Origin: a virus
IMG/VR virus record: IMGVR_UViG_3300031972_002446
Coordinates: 1-64,000 of that record
Reading direction: 5' to 3' (one strand)
DNA: 64,000 nt
A model generated the notes under the pieces. That model searched no databases, was not told the origin of the DNA, and saw only the letters and a program-made list of their open reading frames with translations. Positions 9,588 through 60,337 of the stretch are shown here, in pieces (within the stretch, counting starts at the first letter, position 1; every line of letters begins with the position of its first letter). A program made the position numbers and the translations under genes.

Positions 9588-9642
9588 TTTAATCTCCCAT
9601 ATTTGTGAAGTTTACTATTCAATATTTTATATACACCTATAA

Positions 9643-10557
9643 TCATAAATTTGGATGTATTATACCAAATCCTTGATATTTCTTATCTCTAAATCTAGAA
9701 TCTTTAAGAGGTGTTGAATCTTTCTTTAATATATCTATCATTTCCTGTCTAGTCAACTTGCTTTTACTATATTTCTGTCTATAATAGGATATGTATAAAG
9801 CAGCGACGCCTGAAGCAAACGGGTTACTCATACTGGTTCCACTCATCAAGGCGTACCTATTGTAAGGTAGTATACTCATTATGTCATGTCCTGGAGCCAA
9901 AAAGTCTAAACTTGGACCACTACAAGTGAAGTTAGTTCTATTTAAATTTCTATCTATAGCGCCGATACTTATTGTATTATTATACTTAGCTGGGTATAGT
10001 ATATCAACTTTAGGGCCTGAATTTCCAGCTGCGCAGAAAACTAGACATCCTTCATTATTTGCTAATTCTACTGCTTTTTTGACAGCCCCTGACGACCCTC
10101 TGGAACCTAATGACATTGTAATTATATCTACTTTTTCCTTAGCTGCAAATCTTATGGCCTTTGCTACATTAGACAAACTACCTCCACCGTTTTTATCTAA
10201 AGCTTTTAATGCTAATATTTTAGCTTTAGGCGCTACCCCAACCATACCTATTCCATTATTTACAGCAGCAATAGTGCCGCAAACATGCGAACCATGACCA
10301 TTATCGTCGAAAGCATCTTGTGTATTATTGATAAAATTATATTGACCTATAATATTACCTTTTATATCTGGATGATTAATATCGCATCCTGTATCTATTA
10401 CAGCAACAGTTACTCCATCTCCAGTACTTTTAATCCACTGCTTATCTACATTTAACTTTGTTATTTCCCATCCCACCATTTGAGGATCTCTAGGACTTAA
10501 TCCGAAAAATTCTTCGGTTTTATAAGGAAACAGGAAAGCATTATCTCTATGACTCAT
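9643..10557 (-). CDS. Subtilisin-like S8 serine peptidase
   Basis: VAVIDTG, GHGSHVCG, AAGN, SGTSMS catalytic triad; start chosen at MSHRD after GAGG RBS. Confidence 0.95.
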   Translation of the reverse strand: MSHRDNAFLFPYKTEEFFGLSPRDPQMVGWEITKLNVDKQWIKSTGDGVTVAVIDTGCDINHPDIKGNIIGQYNFINNTQDAFDDNGHGSHVCGTIAAVNNGIGMVGVAPKAKILALKALDKNGGGSLSNVAKAIRFAAKEKVDIITMSLGSRGSSGAVKKAVELANNEGCLVFCAAGNSGPKVDILYPAKYNNTISIGAIDRNLNRTNFTCSGPSLDFLAPGHDIMSILPYNRYALMSGTSMSNPFASGVAALYISYYRQKYSKSKLTRQEMIDILKKDSTPLKDSRFRDKKYQGFGIIHPNL

Positions 10558-10564
10558 AATATCC

Positions 10565-10882
10565 TCATACATTCTTGAAAGGTTTATTTTTGATTTTATA
10601 TAAATATTTTTTAGAATCTTCTATTACATTAGTATTCCAGCTTTTATAGTTCATCAAGTGACCAAATATAAAATGGCAGTACTTATCACAAAGAGTAATT
10701 AAATTATCAGGATCCAACTCTTTTGATGGATCTAGATGTACTGGTATAATATGATGCACTTCTGGTCTTTTGCATGATCCACAAGCCTGACAACAAGGTT
10801 GCTTTTCTATATGCTCTTTGCGCAAGGCTGCCCAACCGGGAGACCGAACAGCATAACGAATTTTTTTATTAAAAGGCCACAT
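10565..10882 (-). CDS. HNH endonuclease
   Basis: CQACG...VHHIIP...NLITLC...CH. Confidence 0.85.
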   Translation of the reverse strand: MWPFNKKIRYAVRSPGWAALRKEHIEKQPCCQACGSCKRPEVHHIIPVHLDPSKELDPDNLITLCDKYCHFIFGHLMNYKSWNTNVIEDSKKYLYKIKNKPFKNV

Positions 10883-11886
10883 TAGTCTAAAATGGAAGCC
10901 GCTATAAGGCATCCTTTAGATACTGAGTGCAGAGGGTCTTCTGCATGCTTTACTTCTTCAATAGGTAAAGGAAACTCAGCTTCGAGTAATTTTTCATTCA
11001 GTTTTTCTATATAACCATCTGCTCTCGATGTTCCGCCAGCAACAACAATTCTAATCGGATCTTTAAATTTAGGAAGGGCTTTATGTCCAGATAAAGCAGC
11101 TGAAAGTTGTTTAGCTGTATACTCTATTAATCTTTCATAATAAGAAGCTACTGCTCCAAGTACTGCGTTTTCGTTAGGTTCACCAACCTTAAAACCACCT
11201 CCCTCTTTTTCTACTTGAACAACACTATCTGGCTCTCCGGTTGCTACAGCACTCATACGATCAACCCAATCTCCAGATTTTGTTGTACTGAATACTACAG
11301 TAGGTTCTCCATTAAGCATAACACATACATTTGTCATGCCAGCTCCGCAACTTATACCGATACCAGTATAATCACTAGACTCTAACTCTGCATAACATAA
11401 TGCTTCAGCTTCATTGATTGCTCTAGCATCATAACCAGTTTCTGCAAGTATAGCCGTGACTACATCTTCATGATATCCAACATCAAAGTCATCATCTTCT
11501 TGATCAACTGGTTGAGCAGGAACGCAGAATACTAATTTTTCGCCGGGTTCAGATGCTTGCCCGACTACTTCTTTTAATATATAAGCAAGAACTCTTTTCG
11601 CTTCTTTTTCTTTGACTGATACCACTCCACGATACATAGGTCTTCTAGCAGCTTCGTTTCTTTCCACTGCTTTTTCTATTGCGTCTTTACCTAGAATAAT
11701 AAATGAACCATCGGTATCTTTAACAAATACTTTACCAGCCAAACCTTTTTCAATCATTTTTGTAGCGATTGGTGTTGTTGGTTTAATTACATAAAAAGCA
11801 TCTCTAAAATCTTTAAATCTTATATTATCTCCTTCATAAGAAGATAAAACTATAAAACTTGTACCTACGTCTAAACCTTTACTCAT
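10882..11886 (-). CDS. Actin-fold ATPase (MreB/MamK/FtsA superfamily)
   Basis: GLDVGTS (phosphate 1), INEAEA (connect 1), SCGAGMTN (phosphate 2), VVAGGTS (adenosine), DPLHSVSKG (connect 2). Confidence 0.88.
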   Translation of the reverse strand: MSKGLDVGTSFIVLSSYEGDNIRFKDFRDAFYVIKPTTPIATKMIEKGLAGKVFVKDTDGSFIILGKDAIEKAVERNEAARRPMYRGVVSVKEKEAKRVLAYILKEVVGQASEPGEKLVFCVPAQPVDQEDDDFDVGYHEDVVTAILAETGYDARAINEAEALCYAELESSDYTGIGISCGAGMTNVCVMLNGEPTVVFSTTKSGDWVDRMSAVATGEPDSVVQVEKEGGGFKVGEPNENAVLGAVASYYERLIEYTAKQLSAALSGHKALPKFKDPIRIVVAGGTSRADGYIEKLNEKLLEAEFPLPIEEVKHAEDPLHSVSKGCLIAASILD

Positions 11887-24916: not shown

Positions 24917-25091
24917 TTACATTCCTATATTCTTCATCAGTCCACATTTTGTAGACCAAATAAAAATCTCTAGGTTTCCATTGTTTTACTTTTTCTTCAC
25001 TAGATACTTCTCCCCTTGGAACGGAGAGAAGCATCACCAGATATAAAAAGCACAACCCAATAATAATCCACAAACTTTTATCTTTAATCAA
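24906..25091 (-). CDS. Small membrane protein
   Basis: N-terminal hydrophobic helix. Confidence 0.5.
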   Translation of the reverse strand: MIKDKSLWIIIGLCFLYLVMLLSVPRGEVSSEEKVKQWKPRDFYLVYKMWTDEEYRNVNGK

Positions 25092-26091
25092 TACTTCCTA
25101 CTTCTCTTCCATTACGAGTAATTGCAGCAGCAAATGCTCTTAAATCTACGTTATCATTAATAGTTCTAGTAGAACCATCTGCATATACGCAATTCATTAC
25201 GCCGGGGTGCATACTATATGCTTCACCATCATTAATAACATTGAATGGTACATTACCAGAACAATTTTTACATTTATCACCATTAGCATCAACACCATGT
25301 AATTTAAATGGCCCTAATGAATCTGCCCAACCAATACACTGGTTAGTACCACCAATAGCAGTTTTACCATTACTAGCCTTATATATATCAGGTCTACTTG
25401 CACACTCTACAATCATAAGAGTATTAGAAAAACCATCAACAATTTCTTGCTCTTTAGTTACTTTATCTTTAATCAAGCAACCATCATCATTAGTTTTACT
25501 TGCGTAAGGATCGCTACCAGCAGGAAAAATCTTATCTTTTACTCCAGTAAACACCTCATAGTCTGTATAACCAAGTATATTCGGGTCTAAACTCGGTGCA
25601 GCACTATCGCTATCTCTACTAGGCCCATCAACACTGGCGTACCCACCATTAGGAGGAAGTGCGGTTGGACATTTAAATACAGATGCTTCTGTAGCAATAG
25701 CAGCAGTATTTTGCCACCAATGTTTATTGAAGTCATAAATGTTTGCTACGTTACCCTGTTCTAAATTTGCAAGAACAAATGCTCTCCAACTATGTTCTGT
25801 TCGTGAAGGATTACCTAGCGAACTAGGAGTCTCGGACAAATTCTTTGCTTCGATAGTCCATGCAGCAGCAGGGAAATATCTCTTCTGGTCTAAACTCATG
25901 TGCATAGCAAGACCTTGTTGTTTTAGATTATTTGAGCATGATGCTCGTCTTGCAGACTCTCTGGCAGACTGAACAGCGGGTAATAGCAATCCTACTAAAA
26001 CGCCGATGATTGCAATAACTACCAGTAATTCGATGAGAGTAAAACCTTTATTGTTTTTAGTTTTTTTACTTCGTTTGAAAAAGTTAAACAT
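25084..26091 (-). CDS. DUF1559 (SBP_bac_10) prepilin-type N-methylation protein with H-X9-DG motif
   Basis: KG|FTLIELLVVIAIIGVLVGLLLPAVQSARESARR..CSNNLKQ.GLA.H; DGFSNT; SMHPGVMNCVYADGS. Confidence 0.95.
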   Translation of the reverse strand: MFNFFKRSKKTKNNKGFTLIELLVVIAIIGVLVGLLLPAVQSARESARRASCSNNLKQQGLAMHMSLDQKRYFPAAAWTIEAKNLSETPSSLGNPSRTEHSWRAFVLANLEQGNVANIYDFNKHWWQNTAAIATEASVFKCPTALPPNGGYASVDGPSRDSDSAAPSLDPNILGYTDYEVFTGVKDKIFPAGSDPYASKTNDDGCLIKDKVTKEQEIVDGFSNTLMIVECASRPDIYKASNGKTAIGGTNQCIGWADSLGPFKLHGVDANGDKCKNCSGNVPFNVINDGEAYSMHPGVMNCVYADGSTRTINDNVDLRAFAAAITRNGREVGSID

Positions 26092-26947: not shown

Positions 26948-26960
26948 AACTAGCCCTTAG

Positions 26961-27033
26961 TAGGGTTGGCGGGAGTCGAACCCGCACTGTACGGATTTTA
27001 AGTCCGTTGTCTCTGCCTTTGGACTACAACCCC
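26961..27033 (-). tRNA. tRNA-Leu (anticodon UAA), short variable loop, CCA not encoded
   Basis: GGGGTTG acceptor/CAACCCT-A; ACGGA-CTTAAAA-TCCGT; GCGGG-TTCGACT-CCCGC. Confidence 0.93.
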
Positions 27034-38531: not shown

Positions 38532-38534
38532 AAG

Positions 38535-38873
38535 TGGAGGCGAGGGGAGTCGAACCCCTGTCCAGTATAAATTCCATATAAACTTCTACATCGTTAGTCT
38601 GTTGTTATTAATACTACAGACAAAACTGTTTGTCTTTCCAACGGCAAAGTGATTACACTTATCTTTATATTTAATTCAGGTATAATTCCCTATCCGATTA
38701 TCGGAGTCAACATAATTGGGTAAAAAGGTTTATGTAACCCCTCCCACCTAAGCGGCGAGTGCTAATACAGAAGTATCGGCAATTAAAATGTGATCTATTT
38801 TTAAACTGGCCTTTAGATCAACCAGTCGATGCAATCTATACTTCTATTTATCTGTCGATACCAGTACGCCCCC
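38535..38873 (-). ncRNA. ssrA: tmRNA; tag reading frame 38780-38748 encodes ADTSVLALAA*
   Basis: 5' GGGGGCG pairs with 3' CGCCTCC-A with G3:U70; GGTATCGAC; T-arm AGGGG TTCGACT CCCCT; PK1-like CTGGT/GCCAG + GATCTA/TAGATC; tag ends LALAA. Confidence 0.95.
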
Positions 38874-50100: not shown

Positions 50101-50129
50101 ATTATATAACTCTATTCGTCTTTTGTCAA
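50101..50129 (-). promoter_or_regulatory. Sigma70-type promoter (CGAA variant)
   Basis: TTGACA-aaagacgaatagagtta(17)-TATAAT. Confidence 0.75.
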
Positions 50130-50798
50130 CTGGCAACTTGAATTTTTTTTATAATTTAAAGTTGACTCAAAATTTTCACATTGACCAATTAAGTCGGTTA
50201 TAGGCGTATATATATTTAGTCTCGGATGAATGTAATATTTATATACTTGGTCTATATGGCTTAGTCTTTTAAGACCTTGATCTTTTTTGATCGCACCACT
50301 CTCCATATTATTTATATGGTCTATTAGCGTTTGAACCACATCTTTAATAATTTTTGGATTCATAATATATGCATGTGTTTGTAATTGCCACTCCGGTTTA
50401 TAAATATAATTATCAACTAATTTAGTTTCGGAGATTAATTTTGCATTTTGGCTTTCTTTATTAAAATAAACAGGCTTATCAAAATATATCATATCCCAAT
50501 TCAGAGACAAATTGTTTTTCAGTATATAATCTATATACTTATTTACTTCGTCAATATCATAAATTTCGGCATCGTCTTCTAAAATTAAGCACAGTTCATC
50601 TATATCTGTAATACTTTTAAGAATCTCTAAATGAGTTAAAAATAAAGATTTGATATTCGTATTATAAAAGTTTGTAAAATGATTACATTTTATAGAATTA
50701 ATAATTTGATATTTTAATTTAAATTTCTCAAATTGTTTTTTTTGAAAATATAACCTATCAATAAGTTTAGGATGGTTTATTAAAAATATTTTATCCAC
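50112..50798 (-). CDS. GT25 glycosyltransferase
   Basis: KIFLIN, SLFLTH, LILEDDA, WDMIYF, THAYI; GTG start inferred. Confidence 0.8.
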   Translation of the reverse strand: MDKIFLINHPKLIDRLYFQKKQFEKFKLKYQIINSIKCNHFTNFYNTNIKSLFLTHLEILKSITDIDELCLILEDDAEIYDIDEVNKYIDYILKNNLSLNWDMIYFDKPVYFNKESQNAKLISETKLVDNYIYKPEWQLQTHAYIMNPKIIKDVVQTLIDHINNMESGAIKKDQGLKRLSHIDQVYKYYIHPRLNIYTPITDLIGQCENFESTLNYKKNSSCQLTKDE

Positions 50799-50805
50799 AG
50801 AAGTT

Positions 50806-51252
50806 TTATTTGGTGCTTCGTGGATGTCCTTTTGGTAGTAAGTCATTGTCTTGCTTATAGCCAGAATTTGATGGCCTTCCCGTTCTGAGTATTGTAAGAA
50901 AAGCATTTACTCTTGCCATAGCCCAACCATCTCTACTCATTTTAGGGGCGTGAGAAGTTGAATACGCTCCAGCGCCTCTTCTGTATACTGCTTTTAACAT
51001 ACCTAATGTAGCCTTACTCCCTTTACCCTTCTTTTTAATTTTTTCATTATGTTCACTAACTTTATTCTTTAATTTATCTATAGTCTTTTTACTAAACGTA
51101 ATCTTGCTTTTGTCGTCTTTGGCACTATCAGGTTTATTTTTCTTACTACCTTTTTTCTGATCTTTTTTAGGAGCAGGAGTTCTTCGTGGGTCTTTTGGCC
51201 CAGGTTTATCTGCTACTGTTTTTAACGCCTCTAGAAATTTGTTAGTTCTCAT
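50806..51252 (-). CDS. Basic protein with DUF5824-like domain
   Basis: AVYRRG.GAY.TSH...WAMARVNAF...D.DLLP..HP. Confidence 0.7.
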   Translation of the reverse strand: MRTNKFLEALKTVADKPGPKDPRRTPAPKKDQKKGSKKNKPDSAKDDKSKITFSKKTIDKLKNKVSEHNEKIKKKGKGSKATLGMLKAVYRRGAGAYSTSHAPKMSRDGWAMARVNAFLTILRTGRPSNSGYKQDNDLLPKGHPRSTK

Positions 51253-51275: not shown

Positions 51276-51662
51276 TTATACACCATTTTTTTTACCTTTT
51301 AAATCTGCTATATTTTGTGCAATATCTACTAGCCTATCCCAATTTGCATCAATATATTCTTTTGGCCCACCCATATCAGCCTGTGCCTGTGCTATTTCTT
51401 CGGTAGGAACCATCTCGATAGCATCCCAAGGACAGACTTTAAGATCATATTTCTTACCTTTACCGCCGGGAACATGAATACATTGTTCGCAACCTATACA
51501 AGTAGACAAATCAATCTCACACCATTGAGTTACTCCCTGTTTTATCTGGAATATACAATCAACAGGACATACTTCTAAACAAGCCTCACAACCAGTACAA
51601 TTATCTGCTTGAATTATTGCTAATTCTTTAGGAATCTTTTTTCTTGGTTTTTTGTTTGCCAT
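51276..51662 (-). CDS. 2x[4Fe-4S] ferredoxin-like protein
   Basis: CTGCEACLEVCP and CIGCEQC...CPWDAI. Confidence 0.9.
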   Translation of the reverse strand: MANKKPRKKIPKELAIIQADNCTGCEACLEVCPVDCIFQIKQGVTQWCEIDLSTCIGCEQCIHVPGGKGKKYDLKVCPWDAIEMVPTEEIAQAQADMGGPKEYIDANWDRLVDIAQNIADLKGKKNGV

Positions 51663-52957
51663 TATGCTATAATATCGTGTTGAATGTTACCAAATACATC
51701 AGTTAGTCTAAAGTCTCTACCACTATATCTATATGTTAATTTACTATGGTCAATACCCATTAGATGTAATATAGTAGCATGTAAATCATGCATGTCCATA
51801 CCATCCACTGCTTTATGCCCAAAATCATCAGTAGAACCATATCTCATACCACCTTTAACACCACCACCTGCCATCCACATAGAAAATCCACTATTATTAT
51901 GATCTCTACCTGTTGCTCCTTCTTTTATACCGGGAGTTCTGCCAAACTCACTTCCAAATAATATAATTGTATCTTCAAATAATCCAGAATCTTTTAAGTC
52001 TTGGATCAAAGCAGCGATAGGTTTATCAATAGCAGAAGTATTCTTTTTTAAATTATCATTAATGTTCTGGTGCATATCCCATCCACCATGACCAATCTCT
52101 ACGAATCTAACTCCTGCTTCACTAAATTTCTTTGCTAATAAACACTGTTTGCCAAATTTAGCAGTGGCTTTATCATTGATACCATACTTCTGTAAGGTTT
52201 GTTGCGATTCTTTTGATATATCAATAGTATTAGGAACACTTGTCTGCATCCTAAAAGCCAACTCATAACTCTCAATCAATCCTTCTAGTCTACCATTTTC
52301 TGCACCATCTTTTAGGTGCATCTGGTTAAAGTCTCTTAATAAATCTAAATCTTTTCTTTGTCTGTCTTTAGTTGTAGATGTATTTACAAGATTAGGTATA
52401 GCACTTTTACTACCAGCATTAATAGCAGTGCCTTGATATACTGCTGGTAAGAATGAACTACCATAATTATCAGGCCCAATGTTAGCATCTATAGTTATAA
52501 ACCCCGGCAACTCTTTATTCTCTGTGCCTAATCCATACAATAACCAACTACCCATACTAGGTCTACTGAATTGAAAATTCCCGGTATGTAATAAACTTCT
52601 TGCTTGATTATGATTACCTGTTTTACTCTTCATACCATTCAACAGACATAAATCATCTGCATGTTTACGCAAGTGTGGGAAGTTCTCGCTAATTTCTATG
52701 CCGCTATCTCCTGCTGGAGTTAAAGGCACTCCCGGTTTCATAATCTTTCTACCTTTACTTACAGGATCATCTATACCTGCTTTTTCTACCATTAAAGGCT
52801 TATGATCAAAAGTATCAGTATGAGTCATACCACCATTCATATACATGAATATAACTCTCTTATTACTTTTCATAGCCTCTTCTGCCATTAATCCTTTTAA
52901 TGCTAACATACCGAAACCAAAACTACTGGCTTGTAATAAACTTCTTCTATTTAACAT
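51662..52957 (-). CDS. DUF1501 family protein (alkaline phosphatase/sulfatase-like), Tat-exported
   Basis: NRRSLL, GG..H.DTFD, RPSMGSW..YGLG, GWDMH, EFGRTP, GRDH, DLHATILH..G. Confidence 0.93.
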   Translation of the reverse strand: MLNRRSLLQASSFGFGMLALKGLMAEEAMKSNKRVIFMYMNGGMTHTDTFDHKPLMVEKAGIDDPVSKGRKIMKPGVPLTPAGDSGIEISENFPHLRKHADDLCLLNGMKSKTGNHNQARSLLHTGNFQFSRPSMGSWLLYGLGTENKELPGFITIDANIGPDNYGSSFLPAVYQGTAINAGSKSAIPNLVNTSTTKDRQRKDLDLLRDFNQMHLKDGAENGRLEGLIESYELAFRMQTSVPNTIDISKESQQTLQKYGINDKATAKFGKQCLLAKKFSEAGVRFVEIGHGGWDMHQNINDNLKKNTSAIDKPIAALIQDLKDSGLFEDTIILFGSEFGRTPGIKEGATGRDHNNSGFSMWMAGGGVKGGMRYGSTDDFGHKAVDGMDMHDLHATILHLMGIDHSKLTYRYSGRDFRLTDVFGNIQHDIIA

Positions 52958-52959
52958 AT

Positions 52960-53583
52960 TTACTCTCCGAATTTATAGTTTAATAATTCTATATCTTGTT
53001 CATATTTGTCTTTAACTATTTGTTGAGTTTCCTCATTATAATATTCTTGATATGGTCTGTGTTTGGATTTGTGCATTGTTTTAAATTTCTTACGTTTGGG
53101 CATACCTATTGCATCACACACAAAACCAAGATCATTTGCAAAATTTTCAAAACGACCTACAAAATCTATTTGATCAATAGGATACAATTCTGTTTGTAAC
53201 CTATAATGTCTATCGCATGTCTTAGTCTTTACATTTCTTATATAATGTATAAACTTATCAAATGTTTTAAAGTTATTCTTATTGAAGTTCTCATAACCAT
53301 CCTCCATTTTATTAAAATAACAACTAACTAATCTATCCCAAGGGTTTCTAACAAAAGCAAATTTAAAATAATTATCAGAATACATTCGGTTTTTCCATAG
53401 CAGATATTCCTGCCAAACATTTTCATCGTTCTGATATATATTAATTCTATTACAAAAACTTATTTTAGTATGTTGGCATAAGTGGGAAAGAATCGTTGTT
53501 GTTGCTGCTTTCGCAACCCTGAACCACAAATATTTATTTTTTTGTGATGAAGTTATCATAAATTTTGTTTTAATATACTTCAT
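52960..53583 (-). CDS. Sulfotransferase family 2
   Basis: KAATTT, FKFAFVRNPWDRLVS, DFVGRFE, YQEYY. Confidence 0.88.
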   Translation of the reverse strand: MKYIKTKFMITSSQKNKYLWFRVAKAATTTILSHLCQHTKISFCNRINIYQNDENVWQEYLLWKNRMYSDNYFKFAFVRNPWDRLVSCYFNKMEDGYENFNKNNFKTFDKFIHYIRNVKTKTCDRHYRLQTELYPIDQIDFVGRFENFANDLGFVCDAIGMPKRKKFKTMHKSKHRPYQEYYNEETQQIVKDKYEQDIELLNYKFGE

Positions 53584-55952
53584 TTAATATTTCTAAATTC
53601 TCCTGTACAGATTATTATTTGAATAAGTTTGGCAAGATCGCTATCTTGTTTAATAAACTCTATAGATTTTTTATTCTCTTGCTCTGTCGGTGGACGACCT
53701 AAAAACTTTAGAAATATTTTATTTATGTTGTTGCGATATAATATACTGGGCATGGTTTTACCCATCTTTTTATTATGTTCAATCAATACTTTGGCTTCTT
53801 CTTGTGCCAATGCTATAATCTTAGGATTATTCATTAGAAATAACGCTTGTGTAGAAACTGTCGTAACGCTTCTCTCTGCATTAAGCAAACTATTATCTGG
53901 TCTATCAAATATATCCAGCACCTCAATCTTATTATCTCTTAACGATGGAATATAAATTGATCTTGCTCTTGTTTCTCCAATATACTTTCTTAATTCTTTA
54001 CTAGGATTTTTTATACCTGTTTGAAAATCACTTACATTTTTATGCGACCCGTCTAGTTTACCTGATACAAATAATAATGAATCCCTAATTTGTTCAGCCT
54101 CTAATCTTTTCTCATTCATTCTCCAGAAATAAATATTGTCAGGATCAATCTCATAATTATTTTTATCAAACTTACTACTACGCCTATAAGCATTGCTCAT
54201 TACAATAGTTTTTATAAGTCTTTTATTTGATAGTCTACCAGTAATAAATTTAGTGGATAAATAGTTCATAAGTTTAAGATTAGTAGGCTCTCCACCAAGT
54301 ATACCAAAATTATCAAAACTATCCAGTATACCTTTACCAAACAAATGTCTCCATACCCTATTAACATGAACCCTATAAGTTAATGGATTAGTTTTATGCG
54401 TTATCCATTCCGCAAACTCATATCGTCCACTGGTATTATCAAAATTAAGATTAGGTCTATCGCTAAATATTTCTGGTAATCTTCTAGGTACTTCATCACC
54501 CAGATTATTTACCTCTCCTCTGATCGCTAACTTAACCTCGCTCATTTTTTCTTTATCTTTAACAGACATAACCGGCTCAAGATATTCTAGCGTAGGAAAT
54601 TCTTCCTTGCCAGTAATCTCTTTTAGTTTATTCATCTTTTCTGTTAGTTGTTTTTCTCTTTTTCCTAATTCTTTATCTAATTGTTGTTCTGTTGCTCTTT
54701 TATTCCATGTTTTAATAGAATCTATTTGTGTCTGTAAATTTTTAATATCACATAATAAAAACCATTCCTCTATTTTTTTCTTCTTATATAAATCTTCTGT
54801 TTCTTTTGTCACAAGATAATCATAGTTTCCAAGATATCCAGTATTATTATTTCCCCGATACAAACCATCCATATTTTCTGTATTATTAAACACCCCAGCA
54901 ACACCATAATAGTCTTGCTGAGAAAATGGATCAAACTTATGATCATGGCATCTAGCACAACTTAAAGTCATACCTAGAAAACCCCTAGTGATTACATCTA
55001 TCTGATCGTCATTACGATCTGCCTCAAACTGTTTGGTTTGTGCCTGTATATTTTTAGTACCTATAGTTAAAAATCCTGTAGCGATCCTGTTATTGTTATA
55101 TTCTTCATAACTTTTATGTGGTAGTAGATCACCAGCGATTTGTTCTTTGATAAATTGATCGTATGGTTTGTCTTGATTAAAACTATCTATAACATAATCT
55201 CTATATCTCCAAGCATAAGGACTAATTAAATTCCTATCTTGCCCAGATGATTCTGCGTACCTTGCCACATCAAGCCAGTGTCGTCCCCATTTCTCTCCAA
55301 ACCCCTCATCTTGCAATAAACTATCAACTAACTTTTCATACTTATCTTCTGAAGTATCATCAGTATAGCCTTTTATTTGTTCAATACTTGGTGGCAAACC
55401 AATCAGGTCAAAATAAAGTCTGCGAACAATAGTATAATCGTCTGCTGCCTCTACTGGTTTTAGTTTGTTCTTTTCTATTTCTAAATTTAATATAGCATCT
55501 ATCTCTGTACCATCATCGTATTTGGCTACAGGAGGTCTCGCAACCTTTTTAAATGCCCAGAAATTTCTAGCCTGCTTTAATTCTACTGCCCTATTCTCAT
55601 GCTTATATCTTGGGTCAGGCATACCCATTTTAATCCATTGTCTAAAATTATTGACAACTTCTTCGCTGAGAGGATTATCTGGAGGCATATCACCAGACTC
55701 AATATAATCTAATAACAAACTCTCATCTGTCTTACCGGGAACAACTGATGGGCCAGAATCACCACCGTTTAATATGCCTTGCCTAGTATCTACAGACAAT
55801 CCACCCTTTACATCTTTAGAATTGGAAGAGTGACAAGAATAACATTGAGTGGTCAAAACTGGCTTAATATTTTGTTCAAAAAACTTTATACCGTTGTCTT
55901 GGGCAAATAATGATCCAGATAATAACACAAAGATAATACAGGACGACCTCAT
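53580..55952 (-). CDS. PSD1/planctomycete cytochrome c protein (PSCyt1-DUF1549-DUF1553)
   Basis: Signal peptide, FFE..I.PVL...CYSCH, RRLYFDLIGLPP, WLDVARYAES, CARCHDHKFDP, VNRVW.HLFG.G, RLEAEQIRD, QALFLMN. Confidence 0.95.
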   Translation of the reverse strand: MRSSCIIFVLLSGSLFAQDNGIKFFEQNIKPVLTTQCYSCHSSNSKDVKGGLSVDTRQGILNGGDSGPSVVPGKTDESLLLDYIESGDMPPDNPLSEEVVNNFRQWIKMGMPDPRYKHENRAVELKQARNFWAFKKVARPPVAKYDDGTEIDAILNLEIEKNKLKPVEAADDYTIVRRLYFDLIGLPPSIEQIKGYTDDTSEDKYEKLVDSLLQDEGFGEKWGRHWLDVARYAESSGQDRNLISPYAWRYRDYVIDSFNQDKPYDQFIKEQIAGDLLPHKSYEEYNNNRIATGFLTIGTKNIQAQTKQFEADRNDDQIDVITRGFLGMTLSCARCHDHKFDPFSQQDYYGVAGVFNNTENMDGLYRGNNNTGYLGNYDYLVTKETEDLYKKKKIEEWFLLCDIKNLQTQIDSIKTWNKRATEQQLDKELGKREKQLTEKMNKLKEITGKEEFPTLEYLEPVMSVKDKEKMSEVKLAIRGEVNNLGDEVPRRLPEIFSDRPNLNFDNTSGRYEFAEWITHKTNPLTYRVHVNRVWRHLFGKGILDSFDNFGILGGEPTNLKLMNYLSTKFITGRLSNKRLIKTIVMSNAYRRSSKFDKNNYEIDPDNIYFWRMNEKRLEAEQIRDSLLFVSGKLDGSHKNVSDFQTGIKNPSKELRKYIGETRARSIYIPSLRDNKIEVLDIFDRPDNSLLNAERSVTTVSTQALFLMNNPKIIALAQEEAKVLIEHNKKMGKTMPSILYRNNINKIFLKFLGRPPTEQENKKSIEFIKQDSDLAKLIQIIICTGEFRNIK

Positions 55953-56086
55953 GTGTGATACCTCCTAAATTGGTATATTGAAATACACCGTACTATGTTT
56001 TTATACTACCTTTCTTATGTTTAGGTATATATGGACAATTCCTGCATCCACTACCACAACACTCTTTTCTCGATAATAATAATTCT

Positions 56087-56860: not shown

Positions 56861-56917
56861 AATTAATAATCCGGTTCTACAATGTAAAAATAATACAGTT
56901 TGTATACACCTTTATAT

Positions 56918-57745
56918 TTAATTATTCGTATAGTATTTTAATATGTCGTCAATACCTTTTTTTATAGTGATTTGAGGATGCCAGAAGTTCATTATGTATT
57001 CATCTGGAGGATTTAGTTTATTAAATTGTACTTCATCTGTTTGCGTGTCCTTTACTATATCACAATTTGTTTTATTGCTAATCAGTTTAGCAATATCTAT
57101 TATTTTCACCCATTCAAAACTAGTTATATGATAGGGCTTAGTCTTGTCTAGACTATGAAACTGTTCAGCCAGTATACTTAAACAATTACTACAATCATCT
57201 GCGTGTAAAAACTGCCTAGATTCCTCACCATCTGTTAACATATCAATAACGCCATTATTAATTGCTTTTAATATAAAGTCTGTTATTACATGGAATTTGT
57301 TTGCATCTTTTTCTATTCCGTAAACATTCCAAAACTTAACAACTAAACCACCCAATAATTTTGTATAAATTTCCCCTATGTTTTTTAATGCGCCATAGGT
57401 CGATTGTTCCATGTTGGACATTTGAGAGGAAGCAAATATAAAAGGTTTCGCATGTCTTCCTATAAGACTCATAGTATTTTCTATGATTCTCATATTATTG
57501 GAAACAAATTTTGGATCATTTTGATATTCTTTTAAATATCTTGAACCACCAACATCAAACGCTAAAAAATATATAAAATCACTTTTACATATGTAGTCTT
57601 CTAAGATTGTATTATTTGGTATTCGTAAATCATGGTTGTGAGTAATACTAATATCAAATTCTAAAACTTTTTCTTGTTTGTTTTTTAAGAAAGAAGTTAG
57701 ATGGTTGCCTATTTGACCAGATGATCCTATAATTAAACTTGTCAT
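56918..57745 (-). CDS. NAD-dependent epimerase/dehydratase (extended SDR)
   Basis: GSSGQIG, YGALK (YxxxK), NVYG, RQFLH. Confidence 0.9.
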   Translation of the reverse strand: MTSLIIGSSGQIGNHLTSFLKNKQEKVLEFDISITHNHDLRIPNNTILEDYICKSDFIYFLAFDVGGSRYLKEYQNDPKFVSNNMRIIENTMSLIGRHAKPFIFASSQMSNMEQSTYGALKNIGEIYTKLLGGLVVKFWNVYGIEKDANKFHVITDFILKAINNGVIDMLTDGEESRQFLHADDCSNCLSILAEQFHSLDKTKPYHITSFEWVKIIDIAKLISNKTNCDIVKDTQTDEVQFNKLNPPDEYIMNFWHPQITIKKGIDDILKYYTNN

Positions 57746-58587
57746 TATGCTACATACCTTATATGTTTATCTATCATGGTATAAGGACTATTAGAGTATA
57801 AAGCACTAAAGAATCCTAAATTACTATTAACCAATAATTTATGATGACATTTACTCATCAGCAAAGCCTCTAAAACAGCCGCTTCACCTTTATCATAATT
57901 ATTGTTATTAAAAAGCCAAGTAGTATCAATATTATTTTTATCCGATATATATGGATGATCATAGAATATAATACTATTACCGAAATATTTTCTAATATAA
58001 TCTCTGGGTTCTTTATCATTAGACATTACATAAACTTTATCGTAATCGTCTATGTAAGATTTAATAGTTTTAACATAGTATTCGTTGTCCATCAAATATT
58101 GTTGATGTCTACCATGTCCTCTGTTATTATTGGCGTAATGTTCCCCATTTCTAATATGTATACCAATTACTTTGTATTGACTGAATAATGTTTGATGTAA
58201 AATATCTAATTTGTGTTGTATATGAGGCTGGATTTTAATATATTTGTCAATTATTGTCTTGGCAAAATGTATAACATCTTGATCTTTATCTAAAACATAT
58301 CTACCATTTTTTACAGTGAACATTAGGTTATTGACGAAATTTTGATTAACTATAATATCGGAGGTTGTCTCGGAAGATATATCTACATCTAAAAAAGGTT
58401 GTTGAAAATAATATTCCCAAACATTGTTGGTTTTATTATAATTAGTGTCGTAATAAGGCGTGGTATTAATTAAAGAAATATATAAAGCATCTTCTGAATT
58501 TTTTAAATATTTAAAAGCATCTACGACAGTCCAAAAATATGCAAACAAACCTCTGGAAGCAAAATTATCTTTATAAATATAAATCAT
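57745..58587 (-). CDS. NodZ/GT23-like fucosyltransferase
   Basis: G.FA, NVWEYYFQQ, IGIHIR, EALLMSKC...SN. Confidence 0.75.
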   Translation of the reverse strand: MIYIYKDNFASRGLFAYFWTVVDAFKYLKNSEDALYISLINTTPYYDTNYNKTNNVWEYYFQQPFLDVDISSETTSDIIVNQNFVNNLMFTVKNGRYVLDKDQDVIHFAKTIIDKYIKIQPHIQHKLDILHQTLFSQYKVIGIHIRNGEHYANNNRGHGRHQQYLMDNEYYVKTIKSYIDDYDKVYVMSNDKEPRDYIRKYFGNSIIFYDHPYISDKNNIDTTWLFNNNNYDKGEAAVLEALLMSKCHHKLLVNSNLGFFSALYSNSPYTMIDKHIRYVA

Positions 58588-59310
58588 TTATCTATCAGAT
58601 TGTACTGTTCCATCGTTGTTTAGTCTATCGTGCAAATAACACAATCTATTAATTTTACTTCTATCAATATTGTTTTGTTTTAAATGCTCTAAAAGCCTTA
58701 ACTCTGAGTTACCATTACCAATGTTGTCTTTTAAAATACTTAAATACTTTTCACAATATATTTTAATTGTTTCTATTGGGCCAATAGCAAACCTGTCATA
58801 CACACCTCCTAAATAATCTTTAATATTAGTTTTATTATGACATAGAGGAATATTTAACGTGTCTTTATTTATTTTATCAATCGGAAAATTTTCCCACGGT
58901 ATATGATCACATCTTAATCTACATACTAAATCATATTTAATATTATTAATTTTAACATACTCTTGAAATAATTGAAAACAGCGATAAACACCATACCATT
59001 GTAGTATATAATGTTCCATTCTGTTTTTTAAAATATATTCGTTTTTTTCTATCTTGGGTTTGCTAAAAGTTATGCCATTTTTGTGACTTATATCTTTAGT
59101 TTCTGAATTTTTCATAGAGTCTTTTTCAAAACATAAGACGTTTGGTTTTAATTTTTGAAGAGAGGATACGTTTATTTCGGTTAAATCCTCATCAGGTATG
59201 TAGAAATATGTATCAAATCCATCAAACTGTGAAAAAAGTTTGTTGTGTATTTCTGGTAGTGCATATGCAAAGCCTCTCATTTGACCACTAAACAAAAAAG
59301 CACAGTTCAT
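58588..59310 (-). CDS. Putative glycosyltransferase (SGQ.R / YD.V.R.R.D family)
   Basis: FSGQMR, YDLVCRLRCD, DRFAIG, E..L..HL. Confidence 0.6.
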   Translation of the reverse strand: MNCAFLFSGQMRGFAYALPEIHNKLFSQFDGFDTYFYIPDEDLTEINVSSLQKLKPNVLCFEKDSMKNSETKDISHKNGITFSKPKIEKNEYILKNRMEHYILQWYGVYRCFQLFQEYVKINNIKYDLVCRLRCDHIPWENFPIDKINKDTLNIPLCHNKTNIKDYLGGVYDRFAIGPIETIKIYCEKYLSILKDNIGNGNSELRLLEHLKQNNIDRSKINRLCYLHDRLNNDGTVQSDR

Positions 59311-59939
59311 TATATCTTCCTTAATATAGTTAAACCATGACTAATTGGTAATGTACTATATTCGTAAGAATCTCCATATATCTCCATAAATTTCAATAAA
59401 CCACCGTAAACACCATTACCTCCAAATTCATGGTTGGGAGGATAATTGTTTCGGTTGTATTCCGGTTGATTATTAGTATGCATAGTATCGTGTAGCAAAA
59501 CTAAAGATTTATTATTAATAATTTGATCTATTAAACATAATTCTTTAAATACATGATCTGAACTGTGCCAGTCATCTACAAGTACGATATCGTAAATATC
59601 TTTATTTTCAACTGATTCTTCTAAAAATTTTAAACTATCTTTTTGATGAAAAATCCAATAAAGTAATAAGTTATTAGGTAAACGCCCTCCAATATGACGA
59701 AATTGAGGGATATTTTTATCTACAGAGCATACCTCGCCATCAGTAATTTCTGCACCAAGCACTAGGGGTAATGTACTACCACCATCTCTACAGCCTAGTT
59801 CAAGAATATTTTTGGCTTTTAAACCAGTAACTAAGGATATAAATATTGGGCCTAATGCTGGAGTTTCATTGTTTCTGGGGTTAATTTCTTGGGTAATTTT
59901 AAACGTGTTGTGGATATGCCACATCGCATCAAAATCCAT
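59310..59939 (-). CDS. Class I SAM methyltransferase (Methyltransf_24-like)
   Basis: ILELG...G.ST, SVD, DD.H, LLHDT, GLTILR. Confidence 0.85.
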   Translation of the reverse strand: MDFDAMWHIHNTFKITQEINPRNNETPALGPIFISLVTGLKAKNILELGCRDGGSTLPLVLGAEITDGEVCSVDKNIPQFRHIGGRLPNNLLLYWIFHQKDSLKFLEESVENKDIYDIVLVDDWHSSDHVFKELCLIDQIINNKSLVLLHDTMHTNNQPEYNRNNYPPNHEFGGNGVYGGLLKFMEIYGDSYEYSTLPISHGLTILRKI

Positions 59940-60137: not shown

Positions 60138-60337
60138 AATGACCTCCTAACTTTTATCGGCCATATATAACAATACACCTATTTACTCACTATGAACAAT
60201 TTTTTTCATTTTCTTTTCTATATTAGTAAGAGTCTTTTTTACTTGGGTTGATAATTCATAATCTTTTTTATATGCTAAAACAGCATCTAAAATCTTCCAT
60301 GCTTCTGCTGGACTTATTTCTATAGACATAATTTTCC

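Follow-up and report, generated by a model that had tools for sequence, protein, structure and literature searches.

The first 64 kb of the IMG/VR record IMGVR_UViG_3300031972_002446 (G000; 165,940 bp in full, CheckV completeness 100%) contain a compact group of four minus-strand genes at positions 51276-55952. This stretch of 64,000 nucleotides is called the window in the following, and coordinates refer to it unless G000 or another contig is named. In gene order the four genes encode a protein with the domains PSCyt1, PSCyt2 (DUF1549) and PSD1 (DUF1553), here called the PSCyt protein, a Sulfotransfer_2 protein, a DUF1501 protein and a 2x[4Fe-4S] ferredoxin. Consecutive genes are separated by a 4-nt overlap, a 2-nt gap and a 1-nt overlap. 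Our analysis deals mainly with the PSCyt and DUF1501 genes, a pair known from planctomycetes, with its history in phages and with its possible role during infection.

Gene content of the locus

The first gene of the unit (53580..55952, minus strand) encodes the PSCyt protein of 790 aa with a Sec-type signal. Pfam identified all three domains with E-values of 1.2e-13 for PSCyt1, 2.4e-81 for PSCyt2/DUF1549 and 1.4e-71 for PSD1/DUF1553, and the corresponding scores of 51.9, 273.1 and 241.2 bits exceed the gathering scores of 22, 29.8 and 28.5. The N-terminal signal, MRSSCIIFVLLSGSLFA ahead of QD, was read from the sequence. In the translation the haem c attachment motif CYSCH is located within the PSCyt1 domain (residues 37-41; 55830..55844, minus strand), and M89 of an M-P-P motif in the same domain is a candidate for the distal haem ligand. 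A second CxxCH motif, CARCH, lies at the end of PSCyt2 (residues 332-336; 54945..54959, minus strand) and is followed by an invariant DHKFDP. Alignment of 32 phage and cellular PSCyt sequences revealed that C37, C40, H41, M89 and the block C332-ARCHDHKFD-P342 are invariant. A preliminary description of this DNA, made from the letters alone, had named a Sec-exported PSCyt1-DUF1549-DUF1553 protein with CYSCH and CARCH sites; the Pfam matches, the signal and the motifs confirm it, and the search for degenerate haem residues found C37, C40, H41, M89, C332, C335 and H336 intact throughout. The structure model of the PSCyt protein (predicted local distance difference test, pLDDT, 78.7) is nearly all helical with a central coiled-coil hairpin. 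When the whole-protein model was compared with the PDB, only this hairpin (residues 390-450) was matched, with Foldseek E-values of 0.5 or more and VIA Z scores of at most 7.8. Matches of phmmer to polyomavirus VP1 (E about 1e-3) were taken as chance.

The DUF1501 protein (431 aa; 51662..52957, minus strand; Pfam 1.1e-133) carries a signal for twin-arginine translocation (Tat) with the motif N-R4-R5-S-L-L. Both arginines, encoded at 52943-52948, are kept in 50-51 of 53 homologous sequences, in agreement with the Tat export stated in the preliminary description, and no membrane anchor was found beyond the Tat signal. According to the AlphaFold2 model (pLDDT 88.6) the protein has the fold of the alkaline-phosphatase superfamily over residues ~30-431. 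The highest VIA Z scores were obtained with ENPP6 (19.8), ENPP7 (19.5), Xac nucleotide pyrophosphatase/phosphodiesterase (NPP; 19.4) and PafA (19.3). The S1 sulfatases gave Z scores of 16-18 (choline sulfatase 18.1) with a root mean square deviation of 3.3-3.9 Å over ~250 residues and a Foldseek E-value of 3e-8.

Ten residues, H116, S134, E250, D294, H296, D311, E337, R340, R351 and H353, are invariant among the 53 DUF1501 sequences, which range down to 27% identity, and all of them are present in the phage protein. The sequence alignment shows no or hardly any variation at D294, H296, D352/H353, D48, T49 and S134, which are candidates for the Asp/His ligands of a bimetal site and for a Thr/Ser nucleophile like those of NPP/PafA-type enzymes; the candidate catalytic residues are intact. 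Only the segment GSEFG aligns with the metal-binding TSDNG of sulfatases, and a profile comparison with a planctomycete S1 sulfatase aligned just 35 columns. Pfam reported neither a Sulfatase nor a Phosphodiest match for the protein. The formylglycine motif C/S-x-P/A-x-R has no match in the phage DUF1501 protein (P0003), so that it is not a formylglycine sulfatase; any such string occurs in eight of the 53 homologues and never in a conserved column.

The last gene (51276..51662, minus strand) encodes the ferredoxin, a protein of 128 aa without signal peptide. It was matched by Fer4 families (Fer4, Fer4_21) at about 1e-9, and the eight cluster cysteines are C22/C25/C28/C32-P33 and C55/C58/C61...C77-P78, as expected for the 2x[4Fe-4S] ferredoxin of the preliminary description. 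The Pfam search returned every family that had been named for the locus (PSCyt1, PSCyt2/DUF1549, PSD1/DUF1553, DUF1501 and ferredoxin).

The second gene (52960..53583, minus strand) had been missed. It encodes a protein of 207 aa without signal peptide which matches Sulfotransfer_2 (PF03567) with an E-value of 1.7e-21 and a score of 77.9 bits (cut-off 22). By eye, its segments AKAATTT and VRNPWDRLVS resemble the two motifs that bind 3'-phosphoadenosine 5'-phosphosulfate. In all nine relatives that span the junction of the pair, the end of the PSCyt gene runs 11 nt into the start of the DUF1501 gene, and none has a sulfotransferase there. Among 18 close relatives only L015 contains a match, which is weak (29%) and lies ~8 kb from the module, and exact-word patterns found no relatives of the protein in IMG/VR. 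A blastn match to LR756500.1 was rejected as a shared sulfotransferase, because it is an AT-rich stretch with merely a 33% protein match on the opposite strand. The sister phage L108 has a 184-aa open reading frame (ORF) at the same junction (L108:9460-10014, plus strand); it is not a sulfotransferase and carries a motif of the HNH-endonuclease type (HIDHIRP...N...N). With a sulfotransferase here and an HNH ORF in L108, the junction between the PSCyt and DUF1501 genes is therefore a hot spot for insertions. The sulfotransferase is a strain-specific insertion and most easily understood as a passenger rather than as a sign of action on sulfate esters.

An AGGAGG ribosome-binding site is located at 55961-55966 (minus strand), 8 nt ahead of the ATG of the PSCyt gene, and a promoter-like GGTGTAT motif at 55983-55989 (minus strand), ~30 nt upstream of the start. 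A second copy (51278-51284, minus strand) lies at the stop codon of the ferredoxin gene and precedes the DUF5824 gene that comes next (50806-51252); it marks the end of the four-gene unit, so that the motif brackets the four genes. The window contains 18 copies compared with 6.6 expected, a number that none of 100 shuffles reached. Genome-wide there are 29 copies, and roughly half of them lie 20-60 nt ahead of a start codon as judged by eye from their contexts. Upstream of the PSCyt gene the motif is found at the same distance in the relatives L003 and L005 and further upstream in L006-L008; it is absent from this position in L011, L017 and L014/L016. The form GGTGTAT(A/T) is enriched on both genome arms, for example at 9631-9637, 56904-56910 and 60173-60179 in the window and at 81683 and 101424 in G000. 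GGTGTAT is a plausible candidate for a phage promoter element of the -10 type. The preliminary description had proposed an operon of three genes behind this motif: the motif stood up to analysis, but the unit consists of four genes, the sulfotransferase being inserted. The GC content at third codon positions (GC3) is 0.20-0.23 in the four genes and 0.20 in the gene of the large terminase (TerL), which agrees with the AT-rich codon use reported before.

Besides TerL, the contig contains phage genes for RIIA, a DNA ligase, a split DnaE-type polymerase and a giant protein of 4,205 aa. The GC content is even, with 26-37% per 2-kb window of sequence and 33% genome-wide. Because of TerL, RIIA and ligase, the uniform GC content and the occurrence of the pair with its flanks in ~18 independent viral contigs, the record represents a genuine large uncultured aquatic phage and is neither cellular nor chimeric, as the preliminary description had presumed. 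The phage is not demonstrably T4-like. The Pfam models Gp23 and Portal_T4 matched nothing in the genome and were equally matchless in the controls, hence uninformative. The polymerase, which is of the DnaE type (Pol III alpha-like), is distributed over two ORFs outside the window (G000 133091-134698 and 135563-137434, minus strand) with a gap of 865 nt, and its best GenBank phage matches are merely ~33% identical. Further genes on the minus strand of the window encode a volactin-family actin homologue (10882-11886; Pfam 3.8e-67; 85.6% identity to its orthologue in the related genome G028) and a subtilase S8 protease (9643-10572). Sugar-modification genes flank the module on both sides (56918-59939 and 50112-50906, minus strand). 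They comprise an NAD epimerase, a NodZ-like fucosyltransferase, a DUF7796-like protein, a CmcI-like methyltransferase and a GT25-like protein.

Spread, constraint and origin of the pair

The pair was found in 18 related IMG/VR contigs from independent metagenomes, with DUF1501 proteins 79-99% identical and the same flanking phage genes. In both G000 and the complete relative G011 the module is located ~39 kb from TerL, and synteny is kept at the genome scale. A tblastn search of 50,697 GenBank phage records gave no match to PSCyt or DUF1501.

Across the relatives the median ratio of nonsynonymous to synonymous substitution rates (dN/dS) was 0.094 for PSCyt, 0.062 for DUF1501 and 0.050 for the ferredoxin at a median dS of 0.6-1.1; the overall range for the module was 0.03-0.10. 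The median identity of orthologues is 57% to G011 (87 orthologue pairs) and 50% to G028. DUF1501 reaches 90.7% (99th percentile) and 78.9% (93rd percentile) in these two comparisons and PSCyt 86.5% and 72.3%, whereas TerL is 72% identical to that of G011. The ferredoxin, with 93.6% identity to G028, stands at the top of the orthologue distribution. The dS of the module against G011 is 0.7-0.8 compared with 1.0-1.8 for core genes; in the comparison with G028, PSCyt and DUF1501 have high to saturated values (1.6 and 4.4), but the ferredoxin has only 0.71. These values indicate that the proteins of the pair are among the slowest-evolving of the phage genome and under strong purifying selection. 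Some exchange among related phages is possible, but the module is old. The long retention claimed in the preliminary description is supported by the low dN/dS, with a GC3 matching that of the phage and with the high identity to G011 and G028.

The same description had emphasized a single compact copy. One pair is indeed present in this genome, but related large phages carry two or three DUF1501 genes. Large AT-rich viral genomes of 180-243 kb (L108-L124, L020, L021; G030-G034) contain two DUF1501 genes of other subtypes with 27-44% identity, and L109 contains three. These copies are often arranged in tandem and mostly lack a recognisable PSCyt gene; among the viral contigs with several DUF1501 genes, L118 has a weak PSCyt match and L108 and L109 have a full PSCyt gene. 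The occurrence of several DUF1501 genes of other subtypes in large phages suggests that phages captured the family repeatedly.

In cells, PSCyt adjoins DUF1501 in ~70 of 80 loci, nearly always immediately upstream. A conserved third gene was not found beside these pairs, the neighbours varying from S1 sulfatases to restriction enzymes. The conserved unit is PSCyt plus DUF1501 only, and the complete three-gene module with ferredoxin of the preliminary description could not be maintained: no ferredoxin was found near the pair in any of the 80 cellular loci.

Wherever the phages have the ferredoxin gene (ten loci), its start codon shares exactly 1 nt with the DUF1501 stop codon. The gene is missing from six close relatives, and G011 and G014, both complete genomes, have retained the pair without it. 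At least two state changes are needed on the DUF1501 tree, and these are likely losses because the gene is present in the earliest-branching subclade. Full-length ferredoxin orthologues with 60-68% identity were named from Planctomycetota; of five genomes belonging to the DUF1501 sister group, four have one copy each, and none was found in the first five genomes of the Planctomycetes-Verrucomicrobia-Chlamydiae (PVC) group that were tried. In one of these four genomes the orthologue is solitary, with a decarboxylase gene on one side and a TIM-barrel gene on the other. Since cells have the orthologue as an isolated gene amid housekeeping genes, the ferredoxin was captured separately from the pair, as a planctomycete housekeeping gene that appears to be co-translated with DUF1501 but dispensable. 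In L108 a thioredoxin-like protein of 151 aa is encoded ~180 nt downstream of DUF1501, where the ferredoxin is otherwise located (L108:11498-11953, plus strand); a role as thiol-disulfide oxidoreductase in the attachment of haem is possible.

The best cellular matches of DUF1501 are from metagenome-assembled genomes of Planctomycetota and Verrucomicrobiota (46-55% identity), and PSCyt is 37-41% identical to cellular copies. The nearest cellular orthologues belong to the subfamily of loci L049, L037 and L029. In a maximum-likelihood tree the phage DUF1501 sequences and a metagenome group of 61-64% identity form one clade with a long stem and a Shimodaira-Hasegawa-like approximate likelihood ratio (SH-aLRT) of 100. 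This clade is nested within sequences of Planctomycetaceae/Pirellulaceae with supports of 91, 96 and 95, and the comparison with host copies proposed earlier thus places the phage DUF1501 in Planctomycetota. A scan of viral contigs grouped the metagenome proteins of 61-64% identity (P0116-P0123) with the sister-lineage viral contigs L107-L109. The phage PSCyt sequences are monophyletic as well (100). Since the phage DUF1501 and the phage PSCyt sequences each form one clade, the simplest reading is a single capture of the whole two-gene cassette from Planctomycetota by the ancestor of the clade. Donor loci have a GC content of 46-73% compared with a GC3 of 0.22 for the phage pair, which is fully adapted to the base composition of the phage.

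A second hallmark gene of planctomycetes in the window encodes a prepilin-type N_methyl + DUF1559 protein of 335 aa (25084-26091, minus strand). Its best cellular match is 42% identical, and it shares 89% identity with the G011 orthologue (98th percentile). Planctomycete genomes contain 27-63 matches to the DUF1559 family, and 14 control genomes contain none. The phage further encodes a transfer-messenger RNA with the tag ADTSVLALAA (38534-38873, minus strand) and four tRNAs, Leu-TAA, Lys-TTT, Ile-TAT and Arg-TCT (26960-27033, minus strand; G000 67806-68927). All four read codons ending in A or T, which fits an AT-rich phage in a GC-richer host.

Possible function of the pair

We consider it somewhat probable (roughly 0.55) that the phage module provides a periplasmic PSCyt-DUF1501 complex that sustains scavenging by the host during infection. 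The four genes would be transcribed as one unit from the GGTGTAT-type phage promoter. The PSCyt protein would be exported by Sec and receive haem from the cytochrome c maturation of the host at C37xxCH and possibly at C332xxCH, while DUF1501 would be folded and loaded with metal in the cytoplasm and then exported by Tat. Both proteins would form a complex of roughly 1:1 in the periplasm. DUF1501 would be the metal-dependent catalytic subunit with an invariant site rich in Asp, His and Ser and a substrate of the phospho- or sulfo-ester type, and the haem protein PSCyt would contribute substrate binding and/or electron transfer. The most likely benefit would be that periplasmic scavenging of phosphorus, sulfur or carbon from esterified organic matter is kept up or boosted during a long infection of a slow-growing host.

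Several points weigh against this proposal. We infer the chemistry and the benefit to the phage, because no member of either family has an established biochemical function (PMC3542564, PMC5615132). The structural matches of the DUF1501 model leave the phosphatase/phosphodiesterase and the sulfatase/transferase branches unseparated (Z 19.8 compared with 18), the scores for NPP/PafA and sulfatases lying within ~2 units of each other. The placement of the phage PSCyt clade among cellular sequences is poorly supported (74 and 18). The planctomycete host is no more than likely, as deduced from the DUF1559 gene, the ferredoxin orthologues and the tRNA set. The module is accessory and patchy in the wider phage family: DUF1501 is present in just two of seven TerL relatives that are at least 90% complete, and since the other five lack it, the module is not essential to the family. 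Interrupted copies were also observed in two relatives. The PSCyt gene of L019 (L019:7569-9818) contains two in-frame stops, and the DUF1501 gene of G029 (G029:C1:192585-193779) is split into parts of 317 and 128 aa; assembly errors or real decay may account for both.

With respect to the ferredoxin, the chance is only a little short of even that it acts as a general cytoplasmic electron carrier, comparable to the petF product of cyanophages, and that it adjoins DUF1501 by clustering of accessory genes, so that PSCyt and DUF1501 alone cooperate. Its independent origin and variable presence point in this direction, as do the junctions of the region, which take up unrelated genes such as the sulfotransferase here and the HNH endonuclease in L108. 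Mere clustering would be harder to reconcile with a 1-nt overlap with DUF1501 that is invariably kept. In addition, no radical-SAM gene was found in the phage and hence no maturase of the anSME type (anaerobic sulfatase-maturating enzyme), which removes one obvious class of ferredoxin clients.

Envelope remodelling or superinfection exclusion, in which DUF1501 would act on a glycan or lipid of the envelope and so change either the receptor used by the phage or the infected cell's surface, appears unlikely to us. The DUF1501 model does match EptA, MCR-1, LtaS and PbgA/YejM at Z scores of 15-16, but these enzymes are outscored by the soluble NPP, PafA and sulfatases, and DUF1501 has no anchor apart from its Tat signal. 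Genes that fit work on the envelope adjoin the module, namely the epimerase, NodZ-like, CmcI-like methyltransferase and GT25-like genes, and a carbohydrate-type sulfotransferase gene lies within the operon. However, neither the flanking sugar-modification genes nor the sulfotransferase were found beside the module in relatives, and the neighbours of the cellular orthologues vary and include S1 sulfatases.

Still less probable is a redox enzyme of three phage proteins, in which the signal-less ferredoxin would ride the Tat pathway together with DUF1501 and wire it to the haem of PSCyt. DmsB, which is exported by Tat as a hitch-hiker of DmsA, provides an analogy, and such an export would account for an Fe-S protein reaching the periplasm. 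The 1-nt overlap in ten of ten loci extends across lineages with saturated dS, no protein is more conserved between G000 and G028 than the ferredoxin, whose dN/dS is 0.05, and in the sister lineage the thioredoxin-like gene takes the position of the ferredoxin behind DUF1501. On the other hand, none of the 80 cellular loci has a ferredoxin beside the pair, the cellular orthologue is solitary among unrelated housekeeping genes, and the phage gene was lost at least twice, with G011 and G014 keeping the pair without it.

Cellular contamination, a chimeric assembly or a neutral recent passenger can practically be dismissed: the record is linear without terminal repeats and the Gp23 and Portal_T4 models matched nothing, but the pair has the same phage neighbours in ~18 contigs from independent metagenomes, GC and GC3 as in phage core genes and far from any donor, saturated dS with dN/dS below 0.1, and TerL, RIIA and other phage genes on the same contig, so that contamination is excluded for practical purposes.

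Relation to known systems

Kamneva et al. (2012, PMC3542564) and He et al. (2017, PMC5615132) described PSCyt1/PSCyt2/PSD1 and DUF1501 as a genetic module that is conserved in Planctomycetes, Verrucomicrobia and Lentisphaerae. Literature searches on DUF1501, DUF1549/1553, DUF1800 and PSCyt in combination with phage yielded neither a functional study nor a report of the module from phages; DUF1501 is mentioned in a single phage paper, which was set aside because it concerns a weak match in a 61-aa protein. While the family itself is already known, the 1-nt coupling of the ferredoxin, the insertion hot spot at the junction, the genome-wide ranking of conservation and the occurrence of ferredoxin orthologues in those planctomycete families that also contain the DUF1501 sister group are new here.

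PSCyt/DUF1549/DUF1553 and DUF1501 are among the largest families without known function in Planctomycetota and Verrucomicrobiota, and bacterial genetics of these families is almost impossible because a genome contains tens to hundreds of copies. In the phage there is a single pair, which lacks accessory domains and is more strongly constrained than the phage terminase, and this offers a minimal version for expression and assay. This single constrained pair would have picked out one paralogue that matters on its own. The pair also represents a new kind of auxiliary metabolic gene (AMG), a predicted exported and haem-linked enzyme system in a phage. Together with the DUF1559 and ferredoxin genes it constitutes a marker set for phages of planctomycetes, hosts with hardly any characterised viruses. 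If the three-protein redox enzyme were true, there would be evidence, for the first time, of a DUF1501 chemistry that relies on electron transfer.

Compared with the module of the PVC group, the phage pair has the same three-domain architecture, PSCyt upstream of DUF1501 on the same strand, the invariant CxxCH and the same export signals, namely a signal peptide for PSCyt and a twin-arginine motif for DUF1501. The identity to cellular copies is 50-55% for DUF1501 and 37-41% for PSCyt. By domains, same-strand neighbourhood, export signals and CxxCH with Met ligand, the predicted products fit this module. Unlike the PVC module, the pair resides in a phage, constitutes a separate clade with a long stem, has a GC content of 33% and is present in one copy per genome and not in dozens. 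It contains no carbohydrate-binding or protein-interaction inserts, it is followed by a translationally coupled ferredoxin, and it is interrupted here by the sulfotransferase.

DUF1501 shares the core fold with the alkaline-phosphatase superfamily (NPP/ENPP, PafA and S1 sulfatases), including the correspondence of GSEFG and TSDNG, and its Tat export recalls PhoX and PhoD. It differs from this superfamily by the lack of the formylglycine motif, by other invariant residues and by an obligatory partner gene with haem motifs. The ferredoxin resembles the planctomycete 2x[4Fe-4S] ferredoxin of ~131 aa, which is often auto-annotated as RnfB (for example in Anatilimnocola aggregata), and the two are 60-68% identical from end to end and share all eight cluster cysteines; the cellular protein is encoded by a stand-alone gene, whereas the phage copy is tied into the DUF1501 operon by the 1-nt overlap.

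Among phage AMGs, the ferredoxin gene petF of cyanophages, pstS and phoA are comparable: they are likewise host-derived, ameliorated, under purifying selection, patchy in distribution and presumed to sustain host metabolism. The PSCyt-DUF1501 pair differs from them by its predicted exported products and by the inferred host phylum Planctomycetota with hardly any characterised phages. Taken together, the pair is located in a bona fide phage genome, has cellular homologues and is kept in related phages, and it therefore belongs to the auxiliary metabolic gene modules of phages.

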